DNA of 6,465 nucleotides from a virus (taxonomy: Duplodnaviria; Heunggongvirae; Uroviricota; Caudoviricetes): the IMG/VR virus record IMGVR_UViG_2778261313_000001, positions 1 through 6,465 of that record; one strand, given 5' to 3'. Shown in pieces: positions 1 to 6,465 of the stretch (the first letter of the stretch is position 1; each line of letters begins with the position of its first letter). Position numbers and translations under genes: made by a program. The notes under the pieces were generated by a model. That model was not told the origin of the DNA and did not search any database. It saw nothing but the letters and a program-made list of their open reading frames with translations.

Positions 1-84
1 CGGTTCAAAGCTCTGCTGAACAATTGCGATCTTTTCCTGTGTGGTACGCCGTCTGCGTTTCTCCGGCCCTAAGACATCAATCAT
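1..84 (-). CDS. insC: IS2 transposase OrfA (InsC), N-terminal 28 codons only (partial, continues beyond window start)
   Basis: ATG on - strand at 84..82; translation [28 protein letters not shown]; the basic RRRR stretch followed by QEKIAIV is the start of the IS3-family OrfA helix-turn-helix region. Confidence 0.85.
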
Positions 85-175
85 CTGTTCTCCAATGACT
101 AGTCTAAAAACTAGTATTAAGACTATCACTTATTTAAGTGATACTGGTTGTCTGGAGATTCAGGGGGCCAGTCTA
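1..175 (-). mobile_element. IS2 (IS3 family) insertion sequence, terminal ~175 bp including the inverted repeat; the rest of the element lies left of the window
   Basis: Reverse complement of 1-84 encodes [28 protein letters not shown], which I recognise as the N-terminus of IS2 OrfA/InsC, with GGAG Shine-Dalgarno upstream of its ATG. Positions 86-175 match the IS2 terminal region as I recall it, ending ...GATTCAGGGGGCCAGTCTA at 175. Identification is from memory, not a search. Confidence 0.88.
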
Positions 176-179
176 ATTC

Positions 180-782
180 TTGGTTAACATGGATAGTATT
201 AAGGGGTCTGGTGCATATTTCCCTATTATCGCTGGCTATAGTAACTTAGGTGATGTTGGTTATCGTCAGTCCTTCGAGTTTGGTTGGACGGGTAGCGGTT
301 CGACTCACGGTTGGCGTACTGGTATTATCCGTATGCGTGGCGATAACGCCAACGGGCAGCAAGCACGCTGGGAATTTACTATGGATGGTGACTTTACCGC
401 AGGTCGTAACGGTAGCTTTAACGATGTTTACATTCGCTCTGACTCCCGTTTGAAGATTAACAAGGAAGAATTACAGGACGGCGCATTAGAGAAAGTAAAC
501 TCCCTGAAAGTCTACACCTACGATAAAGTTAAATCTCTTTCAGATGACACAGTGATTAAACGCGAAGTAGGTATTATTGCTCAGGATCTGGAAGAAGTGT
601 TGCCGGAAGCAGTAGGTATTCAATCCACCGAAGATCCAGAACAACCGGAAGCAATTAAGACTATTTCTAACTCTGCTGTTAATGCCTTGATTATTAAAGC
701 TATTCAGGAAATGGACGCCAAATATCAAGCTAAGATTGAAGCATTGACTAAAGAGATTGCCGAACTCAAAGCAACTAAATAA
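180..782 (+). CDS. 3' fragment of a tail fiber/tailspike gene with C-terminal Peptidase S74-like intramolecular chaperone domain; probably truncated at its 5' side by the IS2 insertion
   Basis: Frame is open from 177, immediately at the IS2 junction (the TAA at 174-176 is formed by the IS2 end plus one flanking base). Possible starts are TTG 180 or ATG 189, neither with a convincing Shine-Dalgarno. Motif RSDSRLK (nt 435-455) gives a Ser...Lys spacing like the catalytic dyad of S74 chaperone domains, followed by GIIAQDLEEVLPEAV, typical of that domain. The part before the motif is Gly/Ser/Thr-rich, fiber-like. Ends TAATAA at 779-784. Confidence 0.6.
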   Translation: MVNMDSIKGSGAYFPIIAGYSNLGDVGYRQSFEFGWTGSGSTHGWRTGIIRMRGDNANGQQARWEFTMDGDFTAGRNGSFNDVYIRSDSRLKINKEELQDGALEKVNSLKVYTYDKVKSLSDDTVIKREVGIIAQDLEEVLPEAVGIQSTEDPEQPEAIKTISNSAVNALIIKAIQEMDAKYQAKIEALTKEIAELKATK

Positions 783-790
783 TAAAAGTC

Positions 791-807
791 GGGGGACTAG
801 TTCCCCC
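791..807 (+). terminator. GC-rich hairpin (GGGGGA-CTAGT-TCCCCC) after the fiber gene; weak terminator or RNA stability element
   Basis: 6-bp stem with 5 G:C pairs and a 5-nt loop, 8 nt past the stop; followed by an A/T-rich stretch but no immediate U-run. Confidence 0.3.
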
Positions 808-838
808 ATAATAACAATTTTAATTAAGGGGTAATTCT

Positions 839-1309
839 ATGTCTCAATTTAATGATATTTTTACTGGTGGTCTGGTAAGTCTGTTCTATCACGCTGATAC
901 CACTAACACCGCTCTCGATCACTCCGGTTACGAAGAAATTAAAGAGTGTGCTGGTTTTCCTGAAACTGGTATCGAGCGCGGTACTGTAGAAGTTAAATCC
1001 TTCTCTTCTCAGTATAACCGTAAGCTGGTAGGGAAACTGAACGTTCCTGATCTGACTCTGACCGTTAACTACATCCCAGGCGATGCGGTGCACGAGAAGC
1101 TCATTAAAGCTGCCGAAGACGGTACTCGAATTCAGATTAAGATTGAATACTATGTTGATGCAGCAAAACAGACTGGTATTCGCACCGCTTTCAACGGCTT
1201 TATTTCTAAAGTTGCTATGAACGGTGGCGATGAAGAAGTTGTAACCAAAGAGTTTACCTTCGCGGTGGACGGAAAGCCGATCAAACAGGAAATCTTCACT
1301 GCCGGATGA
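839..1309 (+). CDS. major tail tube protein, lambda gpV-like tube domain (156 aa); in-frame UGA stop followed by 41 sense codons to TAA at 1433-1435
   Basis: Shine-Dalgarno AAGGGG at 826-831, 7 nt before ATG 839. The segment DLTLTVNYIPGDAVHEKLIKAAEDGTRIQIKIEY lines up with the lambda gpV segment [34 protein letters not shown] as I recall it. Position upstream of the chaperone pair and tape measure gene; terminator downstream. Confidence 0.75.
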   Translation: MSQFNDIFTGGLVSLFYHADTTNTALDHSGYEEIKECAGFPETGIERGTVEVKSFSSQYNRKLVGKLNVPDLTLTVNYIPGDAVHEKLIKAAEDGTRIQIKIEYYVDAAKQTGIRTAFNGFISKVAMNGGDEEVVTKEFTFAVDGKPIKQEIFTAG

Positions 1310-1440
1310 ACTAACGAAGAACTTCCTTTAATAGAACCGGAACCACTACCGGAACATGAAGCGGTGGTGATTCCAGAAGTAGAAGAAGTTACGGCGAAAG
1401 CCACAGCAAAACGAGGCCGCAAGGCTAAGAATTAATTTTA

Positions 1441-1468
1441 AGCCCTGCCTTAATGGTGGGGCTTTTTT
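1441..1468 (+). terminator. rho-independent terminator after the major tail protein region
   Basis: Stem AGCCCTGCC (1441-1449) pairs with GGTGGGGCT (1455-1463), 9 bp including 2 G:U pairs, loop TTAAT, followed by TTTTT at 1464-1468. It begins 6 nt after the TAA at 1433-1435. Confidence 0.7.
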
Positions 1469-1483
1469 ATTGGAGTAATCAAA

Positions 1484-1990
1484 ATGGCAAATGTCGTTAA
1501 TAAGCCCGGCTGGGTCGGATCATCTGCTGTATCGGTGACGGGTAAGCGATGGATGAAAGAAGCATTAACAGCTTTAAAAGTTCCGGCTCCGCGTAATATG
1601 TCGGCAATGGCTGGTCGTGGTATGGATACGGTTGTAGCTACTGCATCGTGGTCTACTTCATTGGGTAATAACTGGGGTGTAACTGCTTCAAACTATCCTG
1701 TTTCCGGTATGCAAAGCAAAGGATCTATGGAGAACCCCGAAAACGTGGGCGTAGGCCGTCTAATTGGCGTTATCGTTGGTCAATTCAATGGCGGTACTCC
1801 TACTATGGCTGTATATCTCCAGAACGGTAGAGCGGGGAATATAACCGTTAATTTGGGTGGTGCTGCTGTCACTGTTCCTTATAACAGTATGCAAAGTGGT
1901 TTTCATTACTACTGGTTAAGCAATCCTCCGGCAGCTTTCCTCAATAACATTAAGAAGACTGGCACTAAGCAGACTTTGAAAATCTCTTAA
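1484..1990 (+). CDS. hypothetical protein (168 aa), Gly/Ser/Thr/Asn/Ala-rich and acid-poor, no obvious signal peptide; function unknown
   Basis: Shine-Dalgarno GGAG at 1472-1475, 8 nt before ATG 1484. 507-nt open frame in AT-rich DNA; co-oriented with and sandwiched between the major tail and chaperone genes. Confidence 0.7.
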   Translation: MANVVNKPGWVGSSAVSVTGKRWMKEALTALKVPAPRNMSAMAGRGMDTVVATASWSTSLGNNWGVTASNYPVSGMQSKGSMENPENVGVGRLIGVIVGQFNGGTPTMAVYLQNGRAGNITVNLGGAAVTVPYNSMQSGFHYYWLSNPPAAFLNNIKKTGTKQTLKIS

Positions 1991-2032
1991 ATTCTAAATA
2001 AACATATCGAATTAACTTAAGAGGAAACAAGA

Positions 2033-2341
2033 ATGAATATTAATGAAATGCTGAAAGCTCTTTCTCCGAAACGCGAATCTCTGACCATCGGTGGATTCAC
2101 TTTCTATGCTCGCCCTATGTCAGTAAAAGAATTTAACGAACATGTTTTCAATACCGATAAAGATGACCGTGATGAACGTTCTATTCTTCGTTGTATTGAA
2201 GATGAAGACGGTAAACCAGTATTTGAATCTATGGAACAAGTTAAGGCACTGTATACTAACGTCCGCAGTGAATTAATCGGTTTGGTTGCTCAAGCGTCAT
2301 TGATGCAAGATCCGACAGTAATTGAAAACGAGGTAAAGTAA
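2033..2341 (+). CDS. tail assembly chaperone, gpG-like (102 aa)
   Basis: Shine-Dalgarno AAGAGGA at 2017-2023 before ATG 2033. Small acidic protein directly upstream of the tape measure gene, with an overlapping -1 frame ORF downstream. Confidence 0.75.
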   Translation: MNINEMLKALSPKRESLTIGGFTFYARPMSVKEFNEHVFNTDKDDRDERSILRCIEDEDGKPVFESMEQVKALYTNVRSELIGLVAQASLMQDPTVIENEVK

Positions 2342-2712
2342 ACCCGCTTCTGAATTTCTATTTTCGGCAAATGATGCGATCGGGGCTTAGTAAAGATGAA
2401 ATGGATAATATGCCAATCACTCTGTTTTGGAAATTATACATTTTCGACACCTACTTAGAACCACAAAGCCCCGCGTTTCATGATATGCAGAATGCGATGT
2501 TGCAATATTCCATGTATATGACGTCGCAAGGAATGACACGCGAAACTGCACGCAAACTCAAGCCTAGCCAATTCCAATTAATTAGAGAAGAAAAACTCTT
2601 TAAAACTAAAGAAGAACTGGAAGAAATTGCACGCAAGAAAGAAGAAGAACGTAAAGCGGCAATGCTGAACATGTTTGATCCATCTTTGCTTGAGAAACTC
2701 AGAAGCGGTTAA
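2326..2712 (+). CDS. gpT-like segment of the tail assembly chaperone, probably expressed as a G-T fusion by -1 ribosomal frameshift near 2333-2341 (fusion would span 2033..2712)
   Basis: The -1 frame is open from 2326 (TGA at 2323-2325 closes it upstream), overlapping the last 16 nt of the G ORF, and runs to TAA at 2710-2712. The first in-frame ATG (2371) has no Shine-Dalgarno (preceding sequence TTTTCGGCAA). Confidence 0.6.
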   Translation, partial: KRGKVNPLLNFYFRQMMRSGLSKDEMDNMPITLFWKLYIFDTYLEPQSPAFHDMQNAMLQYSMYMTSQGMTRETARKLKPSQFQLIREEKLFKTKEELEEIARKKEEERKAAMLNMFDPSLLEKLRSG

Positions 2713-2723
2713 AGGGGTAATTT

Positions 2724-5153
2724 ATGACAAAACATATAGTAACAATAGAAGGGGATAATAAAGGTCTAAGGAGAAGTACCAATGAAGCCGCCGACCTTCT
2801 CGATAGTTTGTCTGAAAAGGCAAGTAATATTGATTTTGGTGGTGGCTTATCTGGTCTGACTGGATCTCTTCGTGGGATCGCTGGCTCTGCTGGTTTGGCT
2901 GCTGGTGGTATCGGCTTAGTTGCGACCGCAGTGGTTGCAGCCGCTAAAGCTGGCGCGGAATACGTTAAACAATATTCAGAAGTATCTAAGGCGACCGGAC
3001 TCTCGATTGAATCCCTTCAAAGACTGGAAAAGGAATTTTCTGGTACTGGCCTAACAGTTGAAAAATTCGGTGATATCAACAAAGACACCTTAGATAAGAT
3101 GGGTGATGCATGGGCTAACGGTGGTGGTATTGCTGATGACTTAGAATCGGTTGGTCTTAAGTTAGAAAACTATGCTCACTTCATGACAGATCCGCAAGGT
3201 GGTATGAAAGCGGCGATCCAAGTGTTCTATGACATGAAGAAAGCCGGAAAATCAATGGCTGAAATCAAGTTCATGATGGAATCTTTAGCCAGTGATTCAA
3301 GCCATATGACCAGCCAGCTTGAGAAATATAATAGTGCTCAAGAGGCGATGATCGCTATTCAGAATCAATCTGTTAACGTCACCGAAGAAAACGCTAAAAA
3401 ATATGATAAATTTTCTCAGAATATTAATAAGCTGGAAAATAACCTGAAAGGCGCAGCCATGACCATTACTGGTCCTTTGGTTGATAGCTTAAACTGGTTA
3501 TTTGAATGGTTTAATATTGATTGGGAAAAGAGTTCTCTATTCAGGGCATTAGACCGTCTGAATAAAGAAGGTAAGACCGCAACTGGTGGTATTCTTAACA
3601 CCAACCATAAAGACGCTCAAAAGATTATTGACAAGTACAATAAAGAAAAGCGTTGGAATAATCTAGCAGATTGGGAAAAGGCCGCGATCCGTGGTGCTGG
3701 TGTCGATCCTCGTACTGCTGGCTTTGATGTAGAAGGATTTAAGAAACGTTTTGGTGGGTCTTATAAGAAAAATGGTGCTCTGATTGTCGTAGATGCTGGT
3801 GAACATCTGACACGCAAGGCAGATCCTAACACTGATTTAACTCTACCAAATAAACCAGTAAGACCAGAATCATTGGGTAAATCTGGCAACGAGAAGAAAG
3901 CCGAGGAAGAAGCACGCAAGAAAGCGGAAGAGGCAGCTAAAAAGGCTAAGGAAGCCGCAGAAAAAGCACAGAAAGAACGTGAGGATGCAATCAAGCGTCT
4001 GAATGCACTTGATGTTAAATTGCAAGGGCAAGTTGCAGCGTCTATTGCTTCTCAAAACAAGCAGTTAGAAGCCAGCTTGAAAGATTTGGATACTGCTTTA
4101 GATCTGGGCTTAATCTCTCAGCAAGACGCAGCCGCGAAACGCCAATCCTTAATCGATCAGAATACTGAAAACGTATACAAGATGATTTTAGGTGCTGATC
4201 CGGTTGATGCTCTGAATGCTTTAACACAATTGCAACAAATCAGGGATAATGAGTTAGAAAGCCATAAACGGTTACTTGATGGTAAGGCTATCTCCTACGA
4301 AGAATATATGCGTCGTGTGAATGATACCGAACAAAGTTATTCGCAGATTGAAGATTCTTTGCATGGAATGGATGGTTTTAAAACCAATCAGTTGACCAAT
4401 AGCTTAGACTATCAGGACTCAAATAATCCGTTTGCTAAATTTAATGCAATCGATAAAGAGAAATCGGAAGCCGAACAAGATTATAAAACCGATAAACTCA
4501 AGATTGATGGGATCACCGATCCGGCTAAACGGATGGAAGAATTAGAAAAACTCAATGAAAACCATCAAAAACGAATGGCTGCAATTGAGAAGAAATATGC
4601 TGATGCTCGCCAGTCAATAGCCGATGATATGTACGGCGGTTTTGCTGCTGCAATGACTCTCTTCGGGCAGGAAAACACTAAAGCTATGCAGATGGCTTTC
4701 AATGCTCATAAAGCATTCTCTATCGGACAAGCGACGGTGAACATGTGGACGGCTGCTACCGATGCATGGAACGATCCGACCAACGTAACCACAGGTCAAA
4801 AAATCGCTGCTGCTGCATTGGCTGTTTCTCAGAACATGGGGAACATCGCAAACATCAAGTCTACTAACGTTAGCGGTATGGCTCATGATGGTATCGATAA
4901 TATCCCTCGTGAGGGTACATGGTTGCTTGATAAGGGTGAACGAGTAGTTGATCAGCGTACTAACGGTGATTTGAAAGACTTCCTTGCTGCTCAAAAATCA
5001 GGCGGTGGCAACTCTCAGCCGATTGAAGTTAACGCACCTTTGAACATTAACGGCAACGTTAATAGCTCAGACAAGATGGTCATGGATGCTATCAAACGTC
5101 ACGCTAAGTTAGTTGCTCAGGCGGTAGAAGACGCACAACGCCGTAAGATGTAA
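2724..5153 (+). CDS. tail length tape measure protein (809 aa)
   Basis: Shine-Dalgarno AAGGGG at 2712-2717 before ATG 2724. Largest gene, directly after the chaperone pair. Gly-rich hydrophobic segment near the N-terminus (GGGLSGLTGSLRGIAGSAGLAAGGIGLVATAVVAAAKAG), a K/A/E-rich coiled-coil block (KKAEEEARKKAEEAAKKAKEAAEKAQKERE), and a second hydrophobic segment toward the C-terminus. Confidence 0.9.
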   Translation: MTKHIVTIEGDNKGLRRSTNEAADLLDSLSEKASNIDFGGGLSGLTGSLRGIAGSAGLAAGGIGLVATAVVAAAKAGAEYVKQYSEVSKATGLSIESLQRLEKEFSGTGLTVEKFGDINKDTLDKMGDAWANGGGIADDLESVGLKLENYAHFMTDPQGGMKAAIQVFYDMKKAGKSMAEIKFMMESLASDSSHMTSQLEKYNSAQEAMIAIQNQSVNVTEENAKKYDKFSQNINKLENNLKGAAMTITGPLVDSLNWLFEWFNIDWEKSSLFRALDRLNKEGKTATGGILNTNHKDAQKIIDKYNKEKRWNNLADWEKAAIRGAGVDPRTAGFDVEGFKKRFGGSYKKNGALIVVDAGEHLTRKADPNTDLTLPNKPVRPESLGKSGNEKKAEEEARKKAEEAAKKAKEAAEKAQKEREDAIKRLNALDVKLQGQVAASIASQNKQLEASLKDLDTALDLGLISQQDAAAKRQSLIDQNTENVYKMILGADPVDALNALTQLQQIRDNELESHKRLLDGKAISYEEYMRRVNDTEQSYSQIEDSLHGMDGFKTNQLTNSLDYQDSNNPFAKFNAIDKEKSEAEQDYKTDKLKIDGITDPAKRMEELEKLNENHQKRMAAIEKKYADARQSIADDMYGGFAAAMTLFGQENTKAMQMAFNAHKAFSIGQATVNMWTAATDAWNDPTNVTTGQKIAAAALAVSQNMGNIANIKSTNVSGMAHDGIDNIPREGTWLLDKGERVVDQRTNGDLKDFLAAQKSGGGNSQPIEVNAPLNINGNVNSSDKMVMDAIKRHAKLVAQAVEDAQRRKM

Positions 5154-5158
5154 TTAAA

Positions 5159-5203
5159 AGCCCCCATAGTCATAAATAATCATAAAACTATGGGGGCTTT
5201 TCT
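5159..5203 (+). terminator. strong hairpin terminator after the tape measure gene; its 3' arm contains the Shine-Dalgarno of the next gene
   Basis: Perfect 12-bp inverted repeat AGCCCCCATAGT (5159-5170) / ACTATGGGGGCT (5187-5198), 16-nt loop, followed by TTTTCT and then ATG at 5204. Confidence 0.7.
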
Positions 5204-5764
5204 ATGTTCAAATCCAAGAATATTAAAATCACAGATTTTACTCTTAAATCAAAACAGCCTTTCTTCAAGGCGCAATCTATCTCCGGTAAATTTCAACGTC
5301 GCTTTACTGGCATTCATTTTTACGAAGCAGAATTTACCGCGAATTACATGGCTCAGGATATTAACGAAGTAAAAGAATTTGTAGCACGTCACCTTTTTGG
5401 TCGTCCTTTTAGTGTGCCACTGTCTTACTTTTCAAAATATACAGGTGATGTACGCCAGATGGTTACGGCTGCTGCTGGTACTGCTCGCGGTGGGCGTAAG
5501 GTGAGAATCTCCAACTTCACCGGAACACTGAAAGCGGGAACTATCATCCAGTTTGAGAACCACAAGAAAATCTACACGATCACCGAAGATGTGAAATCAG
5601 GTGGCGAAATGAAACTCTTCCCTAATTTGCGTCAGAACGTCCTGGCTGGTGAGGTGATCAAGTATCAGAACGTAGAAGGTGAATTTGTTCTCAAAACGGA
5701 AAATATCGATTGGAAGATCGCCCAGATTGGCAAGATGAAATTCGAATTAGTGGAGAATGTATAA
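5204..5764 (+). CDS. minor tail protein immediately after the tape measure gene (186 aa); candidate distal tail or tail tip assembly protein
   Basis: ATG 5204 with GGGGG (5192-5196) 7 nt upstream; stop TAA 5762-5764. Assignment rests on synteny only. Confidence 0.75.
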   Translation: MFKSKNIKITDFTLKSKQPFFKAQSISGKFQRRFTGIHFYEAEFTANYMAQDINEVKEFVARHLFGRPFSVPLSYFSKYTGDVRQMVTAAAGTARGGRKVRISNFTGTLKAGTIIQFENHKKIYTITEDVKSGGEMKLFPNLRQNVLAGEVIKYQNVEGEFVLKTENIDWKIAQIGKMKFELVENV

Positions 5765-6393
5765 TGGCAACTATTCAGGAATCATTCAGCAAACTATGCA
5801 CTAATCTGGACTTCATCGAGGTATACAACGACCAGACAGGTCAGAATGTGTCTAGATTGACTCTACCGCAGCTTTTCTCTACTGGCTCGATGTTTCACAT
5901 TATCGAAGTGATAACAGCGTCAGGGGACGTTCTACGGCTTACAGATGGGTATTTCGATTTGGACTATAACGGTTTTACATATCTCGCAACGGGTGATTTT
6001 CTTCAAATCTCATCGAATACCGAAGAGAAGGAGATCAACAACAACGGGATCAACGTAACTGTTTCTAACGTTCGCGAAGAATACATTAGCCTGATTCGAA
6101 ACAAGCAATTCGATAAATCTGATGTGAAAATCGAGATGGTTTTCCTTAACCCCAACACGGGCAAGGTTGAAACTACTTACCCTGTTTTCCGTGGGGTAGT
6201 CGATTCCATCGGTATTAACATCGAACATGAAGATGATGAGTGTAAAAACGAATCAGAATTTCAGCTTAATAGTATCTGGGAAGTTCTAGATAAAAACGCT
6301 CGTAGTCATGCCTCCGATGGTATCCACCGATCCTATGTTGGAAACGAGAACGATCTATTCTTCTCTCGTGCCGGGAAGTGGCAAAGCGGGTAA
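5764..6393 (+). CDS. minor tail / tail tip protein, 3'-truncated by IS1; phage-derived part is 5764..6388 and the stop codon comes from the IS1 terminus
   Basis: ATG at 5764-5766 overlaps the upstream stop (TAATG) with GGAG at 5752-5755; the track's 5710 start would overlap the upstream gene by 55 nt and is less likely. The frame runs into the IS1 terminal repeat that begins at 6389; the last codon GGG spans the junction and TAA 6391-6393 is IS1 sequence. Confidence 0.7.
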   Translation: MATIQESFSKLCTNLDFIEVYNDQTGQNVSRLTLPQLFSTGSMFHIIEVITASGDVLRLTDGYFDLDYNGFTYLATGDFLQISSNTEEKEINNNGINVTVSNVREEYISLIRNKQFDKSDVKIEMVFLNPNTGKVETTYPVFRGVVDSIGINIEHEDDECKNESEFQLNSIWEVLDKNARSHASDGIHRSYVGNENDLFFSRAGKWQSG

Positions 6394-6465
6394 TGACTCC
6401 AACTTATTGATAGTGTTTTATGTTCAGATAATGCCCGATGACTTTGTCATGCAGCTCCACCGATT
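6389..6465 (-). mobile_element. IS1 insertion sequence, terminal 77 bp (right inverted repeat end); the element continues beyond the window
   Basis: 6389-6465 reads GGTAATGACTCCAACTTATTGATAGTGTTTTATGTTCAGATAATGCCCGATGACTTTGTCATGCAGCTCCACCGATT, which I recognise as the reverse complement of the IS1 right end, including the 23-bp terminal repeat GGTAATGACTCCAACTTATTGAT. From memory, not a search. Confidence 0.88.
6404..6465 (-). CDS. insB: IS1 transposase InsB, C-terminal ~20 codons (partial)
   Basis: - strand translation ends ...[21 protein letters not shown] with stop TAA at 6406..6404, matching the InsB C-terminus as recalled. Confidence 0.8.
   Translation of the reverse strand, partial: [19 protein letters not shown]

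Follow-up and report, generated by a model that had tools for sequence, protein, structure and literature searches.

The window analysed here, the whole 6,465-nucleotide (nt) stretch of IMG/VR record IMGVR_UViG_2778261313_000001 (positions 1 to 6,465), is a block of tail genes from a rare Escherichia coli prophage, with its two ends cut by the insertion sequences (IS) IS2 and IS1. The phage-derived interior spans 176–6388 (~6.2 kb), with the end of IS2 on its left and that of IS1 on its right; all coordinates refer to the window, and a window coordinate equals the coordinate in the related locus L001 minus 19825. According to the list of open reading frames (ORFs), every sizeable plus-strand ORF within 176–6393 belongs to one co-directional tail module. 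The block very probably comes from midway along the late (tail) operon in a ~35 kb prophage seated in hicB, which was struck by IS2 and IS1 and then decayed. Tail ORFs were assigned by Pfam and PHROGs searches, with RefSeq names taken from relatives, and an Rfam search of the window reveals no RNA family. Because only the tips of both IS elements lie in the window, no transposase ORF appears among its listed ORFs.

Positions 1–175 match annotated IS2 over 175 of 175 nt (100%; megablast, E = 4e-85) and are the same as the last 175 nt of the complete 1331-bp IS2 in contig L019 and in strain E275a. The minus strand from 84 to 1 encodes the N-terminus of IS2 OrfA/InsC, and the matching features are labelled 'transposase InsC' and 'IS2 OrfA'. 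This places IS2 itself on the minus strand: its left inverted repeat abuts position 176, and its transposase is directed away from the tail genes. The adjoining phage sequence is the 3′ remnant of a tail-fibre gene, the unbroken form of which occupies 16999–20607 of L001; the IS2 junction falls at codon ~1001–1002. The ORF called in this remnant, 189–782, is the 197-amino-acid (aa) protein WP_024245686.1, which contains a Peptidase_S74 intramolecular chaperone domain. Positions 176–180 (ATTCT) are the expected IS2 target duplication, with the far flank outside the window. In L019, which shares this junction, IS2 is complete and includes ORFs of 121 and 301 aa. As a separate observation, the fibre tip at 176–475 has 89.7% nucleotide identity to the T-even-type phage Cognac, and 386–713 is ~75% identical to T4-like long-tail-fibre genes.

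At the opposite end, the terminal 77–78 nt (6388/6389–6465, the junction being ambiguous by 1 nt at G6388) match the IS1 elements of P1, SfIV and others at 100% (megablast, E = 3e-31); 'terminal IR of IS1' and 'IS1 transposase B' are among the labels of the matched features. The minus strand here encodes the InsB C-terminus, ending in HYLNIKHYQ. The IS1 transposase reads toward the tail genes and antisense to them, with the right end of the element against the baseplate hub gene; in L009 the same IS1 copy extends to 737 nt, against 768 bp for a complete element. The junction cuts the 217-codon hub gene 29 nt short of its end, with loss of the last 9 codons, and the truncated product ends in GKWQSG, as opposed to GKWQSESKWFSSKK in the intact protein. 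Its stop codon (TAA, 6391–6393) is supplied by IS1 from inside the inverted repeat, and the exact 209-aa protein is recorded as WP_249439951.1. Positions 6380–6388 (GGCAAAGCG) are the expected IS1 target duplication, the far flank again lying outside the window. The initial annotation had named IS2 and IS1 by inspection and placed each at a junction with a tail gene; the sequence searches return 100% identity for both elements, each of which abuts a tail ORF and has the end of its transposase gene where it is expected.

Exact protein look-up places the 197-aa fibre remnant in 51 blocks of the assembly collection and the 209-aa hub in 44, and both truncated proteins have RefSeq records named E. 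coli. The junctions are carried by NCBI isolates, European Nucleotide Archive (ENA) metagenomes and Logan assemblies produced with different assemblers, and they are exact to the base. Their recurrence in independent assemblies shows them to be genuine and passed down within an E. coli lineage. The contigs bearing them are almost all shorter than 10 kb. Among 5,426 complete E. coli genomes there is neither an IS2::fibre junction nor an exact IS1::hub junction; the junction sequences are also absent from the GTDB species representatives and from IMG/VR, and a metagenome scan returns OJKF01000294.1 only. Shigella was considered as the junction-bearing host on account of the IS load and rejected, both proteins being E. 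coli at NCBI and the chromosomal flank in L018 being 99.8–100% identical to E. coli.

The metagenome contig OJKF01000294.1 (ERZ1743105 NODE_294_length_6465; L010/L026) is a twin of the window, likewise of 6465 nt but shifted by 49 nt, with IS tips of exactly 126 nt at both ends where the window has 175 and 77 nt, and with G at 808. The window is not a rotated copy of this contig, as the 49-nt ends differ. The ends of the twin are typical of a short-read assembly halted by repeats. The window is probably an entire contig of this kind, and the neat IS bracketing would therefore be partly an effect of assembly and selection.

The parent of the block is recognizable in complete genomes. A single mismatch separates the interior from the E. 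coli HCP5S3_I4 chromosome, and 16 other complete genomes match it at 92–97% identity; base 808 is A in the window and G in every other relative. In these genomes the module is part of a prophage of ~35.3 kb seated between yncJ-hicA and ydcR, where it divides the antitoxin gene hicB into 5′ and 3′ parts. Besides the tail module and a gpJ-like tail tip, this prophage encodes terminase, portal, a protease-capsid fusion, a Rha regulator and M15 peptidase/lysis genes, and its recombinase is a 559-aa large serine recombinase. Recombinase, split hicB, head, tail and lysis genes are found together in one block in relatives, as in an integrated prophage, with the entire context visible in two complete genomes. 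An IS-free copy with zero annotated pseudogenes is present in CE0007a, and ~30 further copies of ~35 kb are in IMG/VR. The ~35.5 kb uncultivated virus genomes (UViGs) from metagenomes in IMG/VR were considered as excised phage and rejected, since they begin exactly at gene starts of the prophage edge and are trimmed proviruses. CE0007a (intact) and HCP5S3_I4, E275a and L73 (damaged) share gene order and the hicB locus, with 93–100% nucleotide identity over 176–6388. The placement on a full replicon and the comparison with intact relatives proposed in the initial annotation are thus available by way of other strains, in which the serine recombinase, the split hicB ends and the head genes are found, with the same gene order and one base of difference from the closest. 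Its impression that the phage DNA is AT-richer than the host also agrees with measurement: GC content is 42.3% in 176–6388 vs 49.2% in the chromosomal ydc flank of a relative.

Complete-genome relatives carry IS insertions of their own, at other sites and as events independent of the window junctions. E275a has a simple IS2 insertion elsewhere in the fibre gene, with GAACG duplicated on both sides, and HCP5S3_I4 carries two IS2 copies, one within the capsid gene and one close to the lysis genes, in addition to IS1 and IS5. In an IMG/VR member (L041), IS2 lies upstream of the fibre gene at a distance of 836 nt. In the complete genome of L73 the prophage is reduced to IS3, ~2 kb of tail genes and IS1 at hicB, an IS-linked deletion. 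Altogether IS2 has struck this prophage family independently at no fewer than five sites (at least L001 12016–13346 and 32694–34024, L024 10845–12175, L041 1–108 and window 1–175), and two IS2 variants, ~96% identical, are represented.

Genomes that share the window junctions show further damage. In GCA_036619535.1 the order is IS2, 176–5469, IS1, 5461–5701, IS5075, 5701–6388 and IS1, the second IS1 (at 5469, in the distal tail gene) being flanked by the 9-bp duplication GGTTACGGC. In metagenome ERZ27227080 there is, in addition, IS903B at 1064 and, in the tape-measure gene at 3729, an IS629-like element of the IS3 family that is 1310 bp long. In L012 the tape-measure gene is split by a 10-bp gap. 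In L018, IS2, the fibre remnant and the tail tube are retained, and a deletion joins 1392 to the attR side by ydcR with 5 bp of microhomology. The nested series of damage is of the kind expected for neutral DNA in an IS-active lineage, and for a prophage no longer under selection.

Two of these rearrangements have features of their own. The L018 deletion creates a chimeric 64-aa ORF (L018 1217–1411) that runs from phage intergenic sequence (window ~1364–1392) into the C-terminal codons of hicB, ending in LGKELSLVMV. Several Logan contigs from different samples (L011, L012, L023) start at 1394 or end at 1417, close to the L018 breakpoint at 1392, which suggests that the intergenic sequence between tube and adhesin genes at ~1392–1417 is a recurrent breakpoint or a short repeat. 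IS5075 (L017 369–1694) is inserted at window 5701 in the distal tail gene, between AAAACGGA and AAATA. The surrounding window sequence, 5688–5710, seems to resemble the Tn21 repeat and is presumably a further mimic of the IS5075 target. Ordinarily IS5075 inserts in Tn21-family transposons, at their terminal repeats, and it is also known from fortuitous mimics of these, such as Klebsiella ureC (PMC8269217).

These observations suggest a sequence of events in which a ~35 kb temperate siphovirus-type prophage would have integrated into hicB by means of its large serine recombinase. Transposition of IS2 into the fibre gene at codon ~1002 of 1202 would have split the fibre, and transposition of IS1 into the hub gene 29 nt before its end would have removed 9 residues. 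IS2, with its own genes opposed to the operon, may cut the tail genes off from the upstream late transcript. The prophage would no longer be maintained as a phage, and the heirs of both junctions would have gained more IS insertions and deletions. A simple IS2 insertion would imply a reciprocal junction in which sequence ending in GACCGTGCTCCATTCT adjoins TGGATTTGCCCCTATATTTCC (fibre codon ~1002 against the IS2 right end). A simple IS1 insertion would imply one in which sequence ending in AAGTTGGCAGCATCACC adjoins GGCAAAGCGAGTCGAAGTGGTTTAGC (the IS1 left end), with the far end of IS1 adjoining GGCAAAGCGAGTCGAAGTGG. We infer from the window and its relatives both that the insertions were simple and that the prophage is non-functional in the source genome. 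The initial annotation's suggestion of a degenerating prophage is upheld by the two truncated tail genes, by the additional IS insertions and the deletion in junction-sharing genomes, and by the deletion in L73.

Several points weigh against this account. The source genome was not found, and the window covers only 175 + 77 nt of the IS elements. The 1015-aa fibre-N::IS2 fusion protein expected from a simple insertion was not found in either of two alleles by exact look-up, in which one substitution would hide it. L019, the only contig that crosses IS2, has a lambdoid lom gene beyond it, and its IS2 is flanked by TCCTG and ATTCT without a 5-bp duplication; at least there, IS2 is not a simple insertion or the metagenome contig is chimeric. 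The enclosed tail genes are all intact and one base from intact relatives, so that decay in the window amounts to two IS insertions only, and the damage is recent and confined to them. Long side fibres are dispensable in some siphoviruses, as in lambda PaPa stf, and phage P1 naturally carries IS1 (a megablast match). An Stx2 prophage with IS629 in stx2 still forms plaques, and its downstream genes are transcribed (PMC7430833). IS-bearing prophages can remain viable, and therefore an IS inside a prophage does not alone prove a defect. It is nevertheless unlikely that the present prophage still functions, with the fibre as an accessory, the hub tolerant of its loss, late antitermination carrying transcription across both IS elements, and the additional 2.1 kb still accommodated in packaging. 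In its favour, all seven other tail ORFs are intact and near-identical to those of IS-free relatives, and the hub is shortened by just 9 aa. Against it, 1002 of the 1202 fibre residues are lost from this transcription unit, the orientation of IS2 opposes the operon, and in junction-sharing genomes the distal-tail and tape-measure genes are subsequently broken and the whole right arm is lost, indicating that tail function is not under selection.

A possible reading, rated less probable than simple insertions in an otherwise present prophage, is that the block is an isolated fragment, separated by recombination or by IS-mediated deletion or inversion with other IS2 and IS1 copies, amid unrelated prophage debris. 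L019, with a truncated lambdoid lom, lysis genes and IS66-family elements beyond its IS2, is what such a fragment would look like, the missing fusion protein fits, the closed L73 genome shows the same prophage reduced in this way, and L018 has the large deletion to attR. However, L019 is a short-read megahit contig from a metagenome, its IS2 belongs to a common variant, being 100% identical to that of E275a, and its path is possibly chimeric. Neither its lom::IS2 junction nor the IS2::fibre junction occurs in any of the complete E. coli genomes searched. L018 is still at the original hicB-ydcR locus, and the RefSeq numbers of the head module (WP_0242454xx) are near that of the fibre remnant (WP_024245686), which may hint that these proteins were first seen in one genome. 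An isolated fragment is a later stage of the same decay and not a different phenomenon; it and simple insertions in an otherwise present prophage are rated as two stages of one process, either of which the window may represent. Far more remote is retention of the block by a successful E. coli clone as a useful device (tailocin-like or for phage exclusion, through expression of the remaining tail tube, tape measure and Gp38-like adhesin) or, in a milder form, a family that is a favoured IS2 landing pad, either of which is very improbable. If true, retention would explain the presence of both junctions in more than 40 collection blocks. A domesticated tailocin-like device was rejected: only 202 of the 1202 fibre residues are left, the block does not extend to the tail-tip genes, and descendants disrupt or delete the module. 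Domestication, which the initial annotation had offered beside degeneration, finds no supporting evidence. Its proposal that IS2 and IS1 might act as a pair in rearrangement is not sustained either, as the elements are unrelated and each recombines only with its own copies; a composite transposon was rejected on the same ground, IS2 (IS3 family) and IS1 not being two copies of one IS. Nor do the two elements mark the IS-rich genome it envisaged, their ends being present in ~86% (IS2) and ~91% (IS1) of complete E. coli genomes at a median of 3 and 10 places. That the IS flanks are an artefact of assembly or chimerism is scarcely credible: the window does end within repeats in the manner of short-read contigs, and a near-identical contig of equal size is shifted by 49 nt, but identical junctions are found in many independent isolate and metagenome assemblies (NCBI, ENA, Logan), with RefSeq records for both products.

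Features of the 6,465-nt window, in window coordinates, with the evidence for each.
Feature	Position	Strand	Evidence or content
Left end of IS2 (IS3 family)	1–175	−	Left inverted repeat and first 28 codons of orfA/insC
Tail-fibre 3′ remnant	176–782	+	Last 202 codons of a 1202-codon gene; Peptidase_S74 chaperone domain (Pfam, PHROGs)
Tail tube (major tail) protein, 156 aa, intact	839–1309	+	Phage_TTP_11; phrog_158
Gp38-like tail-fibre adhesin, 168 aa, intact	1484–1990	+	Gp38_N, E = 2e-15; phrog_1121 tail fiber adhesin, E = 2e-34
Tail assembly chaperone pair	2033–2712	+	ORFs 2033–2341 and 2371–2712; weak Phage_TAC_13 and Phage_tail_T; phrog_344
Tape measure protein, 809 aa, intact	2724–5153	+	phrog_13674, E = 9e-64
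Distal tail protein, 186 aa, intact here	5204–5764	+	phrog_1302, E = 1.5e-16; weak DTP-pb9_B-dom
Baseplate hub (DUF2163 / Gp84_N), IS1-truncated	5764–6393	+	Pfam PF09931; phrog_2048; 209 vs 217 aa
Right end of IS1	6389–6465	−	Right inverted repeat and 3′ end of insB

Apart from the fibre and hub, all ORFs of the window have the same length as in intact relatives. The tube protein matches Phage_TTP_11 above the Pfam cut-off and Phage_TTP_12 just below it, its phrog_158 match (major tail protein) has E = 7e-22, and the RefSeq name for the product of 839–1309 is 'phage tail tube protein'. The tape measure protein is recorded in RefSeq as WP_024245690.1 ('phage tail tape measure protein'), and the exact protein occurs in 349 collection blocks. 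The 102-aa chaperone ORF stops at 2341, and the −1 frame is open from 2326 through 2712 with the weak Phage_tail_T match. By analysis of the frames, the pair is probably of the G/GT type, expressed by −1 programmed frameshifting, with GGTAAAGTAA at 2332–2341 as a possible candidate slip site; RefSeq annotates the region as two separate ORFs. The gene order, fibre, tube, adhesin, chaperones and tape measure, is unusual. The fibre tip and adhesin (176–713 and 1484–1990) form a module of the kind found in virulent myoviruses, here carried by a temperate siphovirus-type prophage.

The region of L019 beyond its IS2 is of separate interest. Positions 1–6167 of this contig contain lambdoid pieces (DUF1327, lysozyme, antirepressor and an inverted, truncated lom) with IS66-family elements in between, and the lom segment is 100% identical to Shiga toxin-producing E. 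coli strains; if the assembly is right, this is a patchwork of IS-joined prophage debris.

The prophage family is known only as E. coli prophages and is without a cultured relative. The nearest cultured phage, Escherichia phage DCP80, has only distant homology, in the tape measure (36.6% aa identity) and the protease-capsid fusion (43.4%), and no deposited phage is close. A search of 185,579 species-representative genomes with the tape-measure protein found no relative. The capsid is ~30% identical to those of phiHAP-1 and of Dinoroseobacter and Ralstonia phages, and the hub, DUF6950 and tail-tip layout of the prophage resembles, by Pfam names, that of tails of the phiJL001/gene transfer agent type. 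A literature search yielded nothing relevant on a prophage integrating in hicB, and the LF82 paper mentions phage-borne hicAB only. The family, which combines a T-even-type fibre tip and a gp38-like adhesin with a siphovirus tail, could merit separate description.

The IS-bearing cryptic prophages of K-12 reflect the same process of erosion. The IS-disrupted cryptic prophages of O157:H7, with IS629, likewise combine IS insertion, repeat-driven deletions and inversions, and defective remnants (PMC7430833). In contrast to the O157:H7 cases, the present prophage is non-lambdoid, occupies hicB by way of a serine recombinase and is struck by IS2 and IS1, with no new mechanism involved. IS-driven prophage erosion is already a known process, and the prophage family, although uncharacterised, is already annotated, with its sequences public at 100% identity. 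IS-bracketed short-read contigs, of which this is probably one, owe their limits to the assembler no less than to biology. The window and its relatives nevertheless provide a clean, base-resolved example of the stepwise breakup of a prophage by IS elements, and public assemblies contain descendants whose damage is nested and increasing. Its importance is small beyond book-keeping, and what it illustrates is an ordinary and familiar route by which prophages are broken up in bacterial genomes.

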